Below, in pieces: positions 6,396-6,797 of a stretch of 13,333 nt of DNA (positions are counted from its first letter, which is position 1; each line of letters opens with the position of its first letter). A program made the translations under genes and the position numbers. Source of the stretch: a virus (Duplodnaviria; Heunggongvirae; Uroviricota; Caudoviricetes); the IMG/VR virus record IMGVR_UViG_2909309443_000008. One strand, given 5' to 3'. A model generated the notes under the pieces. The model searched no databases. It saw nothing but the letters and a program-made list of their open reading frames with translations, and had not been told where the DNA came from.

Positions 6396-6797
6396 TCAGC
6401 CTCTCTCTGAGGGTGAAATAATCCCGTTCAGCGGTGTCTGCCAGTCGGGGGAGGCTGCATTATCCACGCCGGAGGCGGTGGTGGCTTCACGCACTGACTG
6501 ACAGACTGCTTTGATGTGCAACCGACGACGACCAGCGGCAACATCATCACGCAGAGCATCATTTTCAGCTTTCGCATTAGCTAACTCCTTCGTGTATTTT
6601 TCATCCAGTGCAGCAACATCACGCTGGCGCATCTGCATGTCAGTAATTGCCGCGTTCGCCAGCTTCAGTTCTCTGGCATTTTTGTCGCGCTGGGCTTTGT
6701 AGGTAATGGCGTTATCACGGTAATGATTAACAGCCCATGACAGGCAGACGATGATGCAGATAACCAGAGCGGAGATAATCGCGGTTACTCTGTTCAT
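6396..6797 (-). CDS. rzpD: Rz i-spanin, frameshifted: N-terminal ~117 residues in the Rz frame fused to the last ~16 residues of the Rz1 frame
   Basis: ATG at 6797 overlaps the endolysin stop (ATGA). Translation [21 protein letters not shown]... then ...[22 protein letters not shown]. The conserved Rz C-terminus (…[34 protein letters not shown]) is encoded in another frame at about 6310-6440, behind a TAA. Confidence 0.8.
6428..6577 (-). CDS. rzoD: Rz1 o-spanin lipoprotein embedded in Rz, C-terminally truncated/altered by the same frameshift
   Basis: ATG at 6577. Translation [44 protein letters not shown] has a lipobox VVGC, then runs into TGRHR-stop. The expected [16 protein letters not shown] tail is in the frame now continuous with Rz. 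Confidence 0.6.

Follow-up and report, generated by a model that had tools for sequence, protein, structure and literature searches.

A frameshift in both embedded spanin genes of a DLP12-type prophage remnant in an enterotoxigenic E. coli chromosome is probably a long-read homopolymer error

In embedded two-component spanins, an i-spanin with an N-terminal transmembrane domain (TMD) and a periplasmic coiled-coil domain (PF03245) is paired with a lipobox-bearing o-spanin whose gene lies inside another frame of the i-spanin gene. The full-length periplasmic domains meet C terminus to C terminus, through coiled-coil 2 (CC2) and the C-terminal domain of Rz and residues 45-55 of Rz1. When spanins are null, lysis arrests as spherical cells if divalent cations stabilize the outer membrane. 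In lambda, nonsense alleles along the whole periplasmic domain of Rz, Q151X and C152X among them, are lysis-defective (PMC5295617). The Rz1 allele W46X is lysis-defective and S55X is tolerated, and missense substitutions of W46, L50 and I54 in Rz1 likewise cause a defect (PMC5295617). In E. coli K-12, the lysis module of the cryptic prophage DLP12 is transcribed, and deletion of rzpD/rzoD alone shifts outer-membrane-vesicle output slightly, about 1.7-fold (PMC7918800). Here we analyze a DLP12-type locus in which one missing base disrupts both spanin genes as deposited.

The stretch of DNA analyzed (the window, 13,333 nt) is identical at 13,333/13,333 positions to CP024266.1 4,550,133-4,563,465, from an enterotoxigenic E. 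coli (ETEC) chromosome. The annotation of FORC_031, the nearest relative, at its near-identical locus gives the gene order IS1, appY, tail-fiber fragments, a terminase-A stub, nohD, ylcI, bor/iss, rzpD/rzoD, rrrD, essD, a porin gene, quuD, ylcG, rusA, intD, tRNA-Arg, fimZ and IS1. Transferred by offset from that annotation, intD (integrase; 10882-12045, plus strand) and the tRNA-Arg gene (12061-12137, minus strand) form the DLP12 attachment end. Toward the other end lie appY (709-1449, minus strand) and nohD, the Nu1 homologue (4524-5069, minus strand). The remnant lacks morphogenesis genes, since nohD precedes only the terminase-A stub and the tail-fiber fragments. The tRNA-Arg (argU) site with intD, the DLP12 gene order and the loss of morphogenesis genes are those of the DLP12 cryptic prophage; judged by its gene content, the locus is a DLP12-type remnant without head or tail genes, from which phage production would be impossible. 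The Q-type late antiterminator gene quuD (9367-9750, minus strand) lies upstream of the lysis cassette with the intact porin gene (8095-9177, plus strand) between them, and the bor/iss lipoprotein gene (6012-6305, plus strand) is convergent to the cassette on its 3′ side. The porin is nmpC/ompC-like and 360 aa long; the K-12 copy of its gene is interrupted by IS5. The essD holin gene (7291-7506, minus strand, 71 aa) and the rrrD endolysin gene (6794-7291, minus strand), which encodes a SAR-type lysozyme of 165 aa (WP_001135280.1), are identical to the intact FORC_031 genes. As is typical of embedded spanin genes, rzpD lies directly 3′ of the holin and endolysin genes in the late operon, and essD, rrrD and rzpD overlap at their stop and start codons.

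Over 13,024 nt, only the frameshift indel and one SNP inside IS1 separate the window from FORC_031. This sole substitution, G versus A, is at position 151 in the left-hand IS1. In TW10598 and 2011EL-1370-2, IS1 diverges at 7 and about 30 positions, respectively, pointing to different IS1 variants at the same site. In the window and adjoining sequence (13024-13333 and beyond), IS1 joins folD straight to fimZ, with deletion of the sfm fimbrial operon. Related strains have IS5 at another fimZ point (2011EL-1370-2), IS1 beside argU with fimZ lost (TW10598), or an arrangement that keeps sfmF-fimZ (FORC_031). The flank of the remnant appears to be a hotspot of independent IS-mediated rearrangements.

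At the frameshift site the plus strand reads GCCAGTCGGGGGAGGCT, with a G5 run at 6447-6451 (CP024266.1 4,556,579-4,556,583) that is a C5 run on the coding, minus strand (GCAGCCTCCCCCGACTGG). This is a direct sequence reading in which no statistical signal is involved. Lambda, DLP12 and nearly all relatives have one base more here (C6), and the missing base appears as a gap against FORC_031. Because rzpD and rzoD share DNA in different frames, one missing base swaps the tails of both spanins. The rzpD (Rz, i-spanin) ORF, from ATG 6797 to the stop at 6396 (minus strand), encodes a 133-aa hybrid. On the domain map of lambda Rz (PMC5295617), this hybrid comprises Rz residues 1-117 (TMD, coiled-coil 1 and linker) followed by 16 C-terminal Rz1 residues, and is without CC2 and the C-terminal domain. 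The orphaned 3′ part of rzpD, codons 118-153 and the stop, lies out of frame behind a stop at 6337-6446 (minus strand). The rzoD (Rz1, o-spanin lipoprotein) ORF, whose ATG at 6577 lies within Rz, stops at 6428 after 49 aa (minus strand); its signal peptide, lipobox (LVVVGC) and proline-rich region are retained, and residues D45-G60 are swapped for the tail TGRHR. Inserting one C yields a 153-aa Rz, identical to RzpD of FORC_031 (WP_001301134.1), and a 60-aa Rz1.

Pfam matches mirror this arrangement. The 133-aa hybrid matches Phage_lysis (PF03245) over profile positions 1-90 of 126 (E = 5e-35) and then Rz1 (PF06085) over positions 24-40, and the truncated Rz1 matches PF06085 over positions 1-25 of 41 (E = 8e-10). 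The repaired proteins cover PF03245 1-126/126 and PF06085 1-40/41. Thus, an i-spanin with a partly covered profile and an embedded lipobox o-spanin gene are present, and the full-length periplasmic domains that would meet C terminus to C terminus are not; rzpD and rzoD as deposited are pseudogenes of the embedded two-component spanin family. An earlier note on this DNA, made from the sequence alone, had described an Rz frame running into the Rz1 C terminus, an Rz C-terminal coding sequence behind a stop in another frame and an Rz1 ending early. It had traced all three to loss of one base from a run given as C6 in lambda, and had regarded the holin and endolysin as intact. All of this stands: one added C restores both ORFs, the lambda reference has C6 at 46312-46317, and the neighboring lysis genes match their intact FORC_031 counterparts exactly.

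Taken at face value, both spanin subunits would be null, as that note also proposed, since the native sequence stops at residue 117 in Rz and at residue 44 in Rz1; the holin and endolysin would still work. Comparable lambda truncations (Rz Q151X and C152X, Rz1 W46X) are known nulls (PMC5295617), which fits a deletion that really inactivated the genes. If the C5 run were real and the cassette expressed, lysis would be held up at the outer membrane, and cells in Mg2+ would become spherical. Any host-level effect would be modest, because in K-12 the rzpD/rzoD deletion changes vesicle output only slightly.

Two main explanations can be offered for the C5 run. We think it likely, though far from settled, that C5 in CP024266.1 is a long-read homopolymer consensus error or assembly artifact: the long-read consensus would have dropped one C from the C6 run, and the isolate itself would be C6 with intact spanins. 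By such an error the deposited Rz would have lost CC2 and the C-terminal domain and gained the last 16 Rz1 residues, and the deposited Rz1 would have lost residues 45-60. Alternatively, and this we consider possible but somewhat doubtful, a real and recent one-base deletion arose by replication slippage in C6, leaving rzpD and rzoD pseudogenized and in neutral or nearly neutral decay. A remnant with no head or tail genes suits this second explanation, as phage-level selection on the spanins is gone.

Genomes carrying the same remnant bear directly on this choice. Among 31 RefSeq complete genomes with the same remnant across 3421-6900, a set that lies apart from CP024266.1, about 29 have C6, which speaks against a real deletion; C5 is found only in TW10598 and 2011EL-1370-2. 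The PacBio+Illumina hybrid assemblies LR883050 and LR882973, which are among the 31, have C6. Across the unique 11,581 nt of the remnant, the window matches TW10598 with 0 differences, FORC_031 differs by the indel alone, and 2011EL-1370-2 differs by 1 SNP and by an A8-to-A7 indel. The presence of C5 in the identical remnant of TW10598, which came from another submitter, favors a real deletion and counts against an artifact. The A8-to-A7 indel in 2011EL-1370-2 (T8 on the plus strand, 936-943) frameshifts appY, which PGAP calls "frameshifted". It is the second homopolymer indel within 14 kb of this PacBio-only assembly. At position 18259 of the extended locus, between ompT and the next AraC-type gene and outside the window, CP024266.1 and 2011EL-1370-2 have T7 and TW10598 has T8, a further homopolymer whose length varies among the assemblies.

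A SNP phylogeny of the remnant was discarded as a clade test for the C5 genomes, because the 11.6-kb unique region is essentially invariant and has no resolving power, and flank structure was used instead. The three C5 genomes have three flanks: folD|IS1|fimZ in CP024266.1, folD|IS5|fimZ′ in 2011EL-1370-2 and sfmH′|IS1|argU in TW10598. In F5656C1, FMU073332 and 99-3165 the match ends at the same fimZ point as in 2011EL-1370-2, yet all three have C6, and C5 was not conserved in any clade examined. Since the C5 genomes share no flank structure and their background is nearly substitution-free, C5, if real, would have had about three independent origins. Given the mutation rates of E. coli, a run of six bases would slip far too rarely to give about three hits on such a background, and we infer that slippage does not readily supply these origins on the remnant. 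Among contigs of at least 2 kb that encode exactly the 133-aa hybrid, none shows the context of the O6:H16 remnant, although short-read assemblies would in any case break up at the repeated lysis cassette.

The origin of the record points in the same direction. The neighboring accessions CP024232, CP024260, CP024263, CP024269, CP024273 and CP024275 are CDC ETEC strains, and CP024232 and CP024260 are attributed to a paper whose title includes "Generated with PacBio Sequencing"; we infer that CP024266.1 is PacBio-only. The 2011EL-1370-2 genome is a PacBio HGAP assembly with no short-read polishing described. C5 occurs somewhere in 3/9 observed CDC-set genomes, compared with 1.3% of the records as a whole (post hoc, P about 2e-4), and so strong an excess in one PacBio project argues against a real deletion. 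However, C6 was read correctly in four other CDC-set assemblies that carry this remnant, which weakens the case for an artifact in that any error is not deterministic.

Run length was surveyed across 5,426 complete E. coli genomes by using a 101-nt context with each run length and scoring records by best match. C6 was found in about 2,345 records (about 98%), C5 with exact flanks in 31 and C7 in 1, such that C5 at the Rz site occurs in 1.3% of records, or ~0.6% per copy, and variation is almost wholly by deletion. Phage 21, like lambda and the DLP12-type prophages, has C6. This is the comparison that the earlier note had called for, and its proviso that the fused arrangement might be the normal allele of relatives is answered in the negative, as it is the normal allele in no relative. 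The C5 records are spread over ETEC, O26, O145, O157, avian and frog isolates and lie in different prophages, e.g., a Qin-like prophage at ydfJ in F9792 and a full-length prophage in UID2309220031. Four phage records have C5: two "lambda isolates" (OR974321.1 and OR974322.1, discussed below) and two induced ECOR prophages. The latter, PhiR30_1 (PV340558.1) and PhiR63_2 (PV340574.1), have ECOR-type strain names, with E. coli C and ECOR13 as listed hosts, and are either propagable spanin-defective phages or more sequencing errors.

Recurrence of C5 in unrelated prophages would also suit a functional switch, in which the C tract is a phase-variable contingency locus or C5 yields full-length products through ribosomal or transcriptional slippage. 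Indeed, the tract occupies the only place at which one indel flips both genes, and in K-12 the lysis module of DLP12 is transcribed and influences vesicle formation (PMC7918800). However, contingency loci have long tracts and frequent two-way variation, whereas this tract is only six bases long and varies almost entirely in one direction (31 C5 versus 1 C7, beside ~2,345 C6). C6 predominates, C5 is conserved in no clade examined, no relative has the fused arrangement as its normal allele and sequencing error demonstrably accounts for much of the C5 signal. The short tract, the one-directional variation and the lack of conservation led us to reject phase variation and programmed frameshifting, and a switch is the least credible of the explanations considered. 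Barely more credible, and in our view very improbable, is that the C6 tract is a genuine mutational hotspot that repeatedly disarms the outer-membrane lysis step in cryptic or domesticated cassettes, with hosts gaining from less explosive lysis or altered vesiculation and recurrently fixing C5. If true, one base would turn off both spanins while the holin and endolysin are kept.

That this site is misread can be seen on a known template. The 90% cluster around the 133-aa hybrid has 437 members, and many of those read are lambda-type on contigs of ~3.5 kb. Four contigs of ~3.57 kb from a single ENA sample, with "tig" names in the style of Canu, map to lambda 45,042-48,488, which we take to be the Nanopore 3.6-kb control amplicon, and all four have the C6-to-C5 change plus about ten other indels. 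OR974321.1 (3,463 nt) spans exactly lambda 45,042-48,488 with C6-to-C5 as its only indel over 3,447 aligned bases, and OR974322.1, its 48,496-nt "lambda" companion, has C5 too. Both appear to be sequencing control DNA. OR974321.1 comes from chicken cloacal swabs and is labeled "Escherichia phage Lambda isolate P5/2022/SA, partial genome", and both records annotate a 133-aa "Rz". Thus, C5 was present in every assembly examined of lambda 45,042-48,488, on contigs that are probably Nanopore-derived. Misreading of the exact site in lambda control DNA counts against a real deletion, although this direct proof of systematic error comes from apparently Nanopore contigs, and CP024266.1 is apparently PacBio.

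A 152-aa "Rz" (P0003, 115 contigs) combines C6-to-C5 with a 2-base loss in a GAGAGAG repeat, apparent from the translation, that restores the frame. As an in-frame Rz variant it was rejected as an artifact, because it lies on lambda-control-like contigs and at the ends of chimeric metagenome contigs. At the ends of long metagenome contigs, e.g., ERZ1761038 contig_954 (333,897 nt) and JGI 3300049821, it stands next to unrelated genes (ruvAB, a trypsin-like protease), which suggests control DNA chimerically joined to real contigs.

The general error floor was gauged by deleting one base from C6 or G6 runs of the essential genes ftsI and mraY and counting exact matches; rpoB/rpoC and neighboring genes have no suitable C6 or G6 run and were set aside as controls. 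One-base-short runs were found in 1/1,738 records for ftsI and 5/3,459 for mraY, all in "complete" genomes. As these must be assembly errors, even "complete" genomes contain them. The frequency of C5 at the Rz site is 5-11 times this floor (P = 4e-5 to 7e-11), an excess explicable by an error rate specific to this context or by genuine mutations that are tolerated. The excess supports a real deletion and counts against an artifact to the extent that some real tolerated mutations are expected in non-essential prophage genes. In addition, the exact 133-aa hybrid occurs in other prophage contexts on the draft JNQT01000010.1 (a 129-kb contig) and on several Logan contigs, which are probably short-read data, and genuine C5 alleles thus probably exist. 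Another 133-aa variant, P0004, has index entries in about 100 blocks of the collection, with many short contigs among them, which favors a real deletion; however, many P0004 carriers are single-contig assemblies in which neighboring porin or terminase genes are fragmented as well.

Collectively, we favor an artifact because C5 is rare among relatives, the remnant is otherwise invariant and the C5 flanks are unlike, and because C5 is in excess in one PacBio-described CDC set, the site is misread in lambda contigs, errors occur in ftsI and mraY and deletions predominate. The call for CP024266.1 is probabilistic, and it turns what the earlier note had offered as a caveat, a homopolymer sequencing error, into the likelier explanation. 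If C5 is real, it is one more inactivating mutation in a remnant unable to make phage and carries little biological weight. The frameshift is accurately described but ordinary, being either a long-read homopolymer error or a routine pseudogenizing indel in a decayed prophage. The case does call for caution: long-read pipelines misread this C6 as C5 so frequently that a spurious "Rz-Rz1 hybrid" family recurs in public protein collections, the same error is found in GenBank entries named as "lambda isolates" but apparently derived from sequencing control DNA, and spanin-defect calls at the C6 position require short-read or Sanger confirmation.

Several known cases resemble this allele. The long-read artifact at lambda 46312-46317 shows the identical C6-to-C5 deletion and the same 133-aa hybrid (P0007, OR974321.1), but its contigs are apparently Nanopore and its template is known to be C6, whereas CP024266.1 is a probable PacBio assembly of a bacterial chromosome. 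The rzpD pseudogenes of TW10598, 2011EL-1370-2, F9792 and UID2309220031, which PGAP labels "frameshifted", share an identical 551 nt including C5, and the allele is thus already known from automatic annotation in sibling genomes. With DLP12 rzpD/rzoD of K-12, B and ETEC FORC_031, the locus shares the order argU/intD ... quuD, porin, essD, rrrD, rzpD/rzoD, bor, ylcI, nohD, tail-fiber bits, appY and ompT. In contrast to K-12 DLP12, the remnant here is smaller, is flanked by IS1, has the one-base deletion and has lost the sfm operon between folD and fimZ. As in lambda Rz/Rz1, Rz1 is wholly embedded in another frame of Rz, 3′ of the holin and endolysin. The deposited pair differs from that of lambda in having C5 rather than C6, in an Rz without CC2 and the C-terminal domain and in an Rz1 without residues 45-60; after one C is added, both PF03245 and PF06085 match, and Rz and Rz1 are identical to their lambda counterparts at 150/153 and 59/60 residues, respectively.
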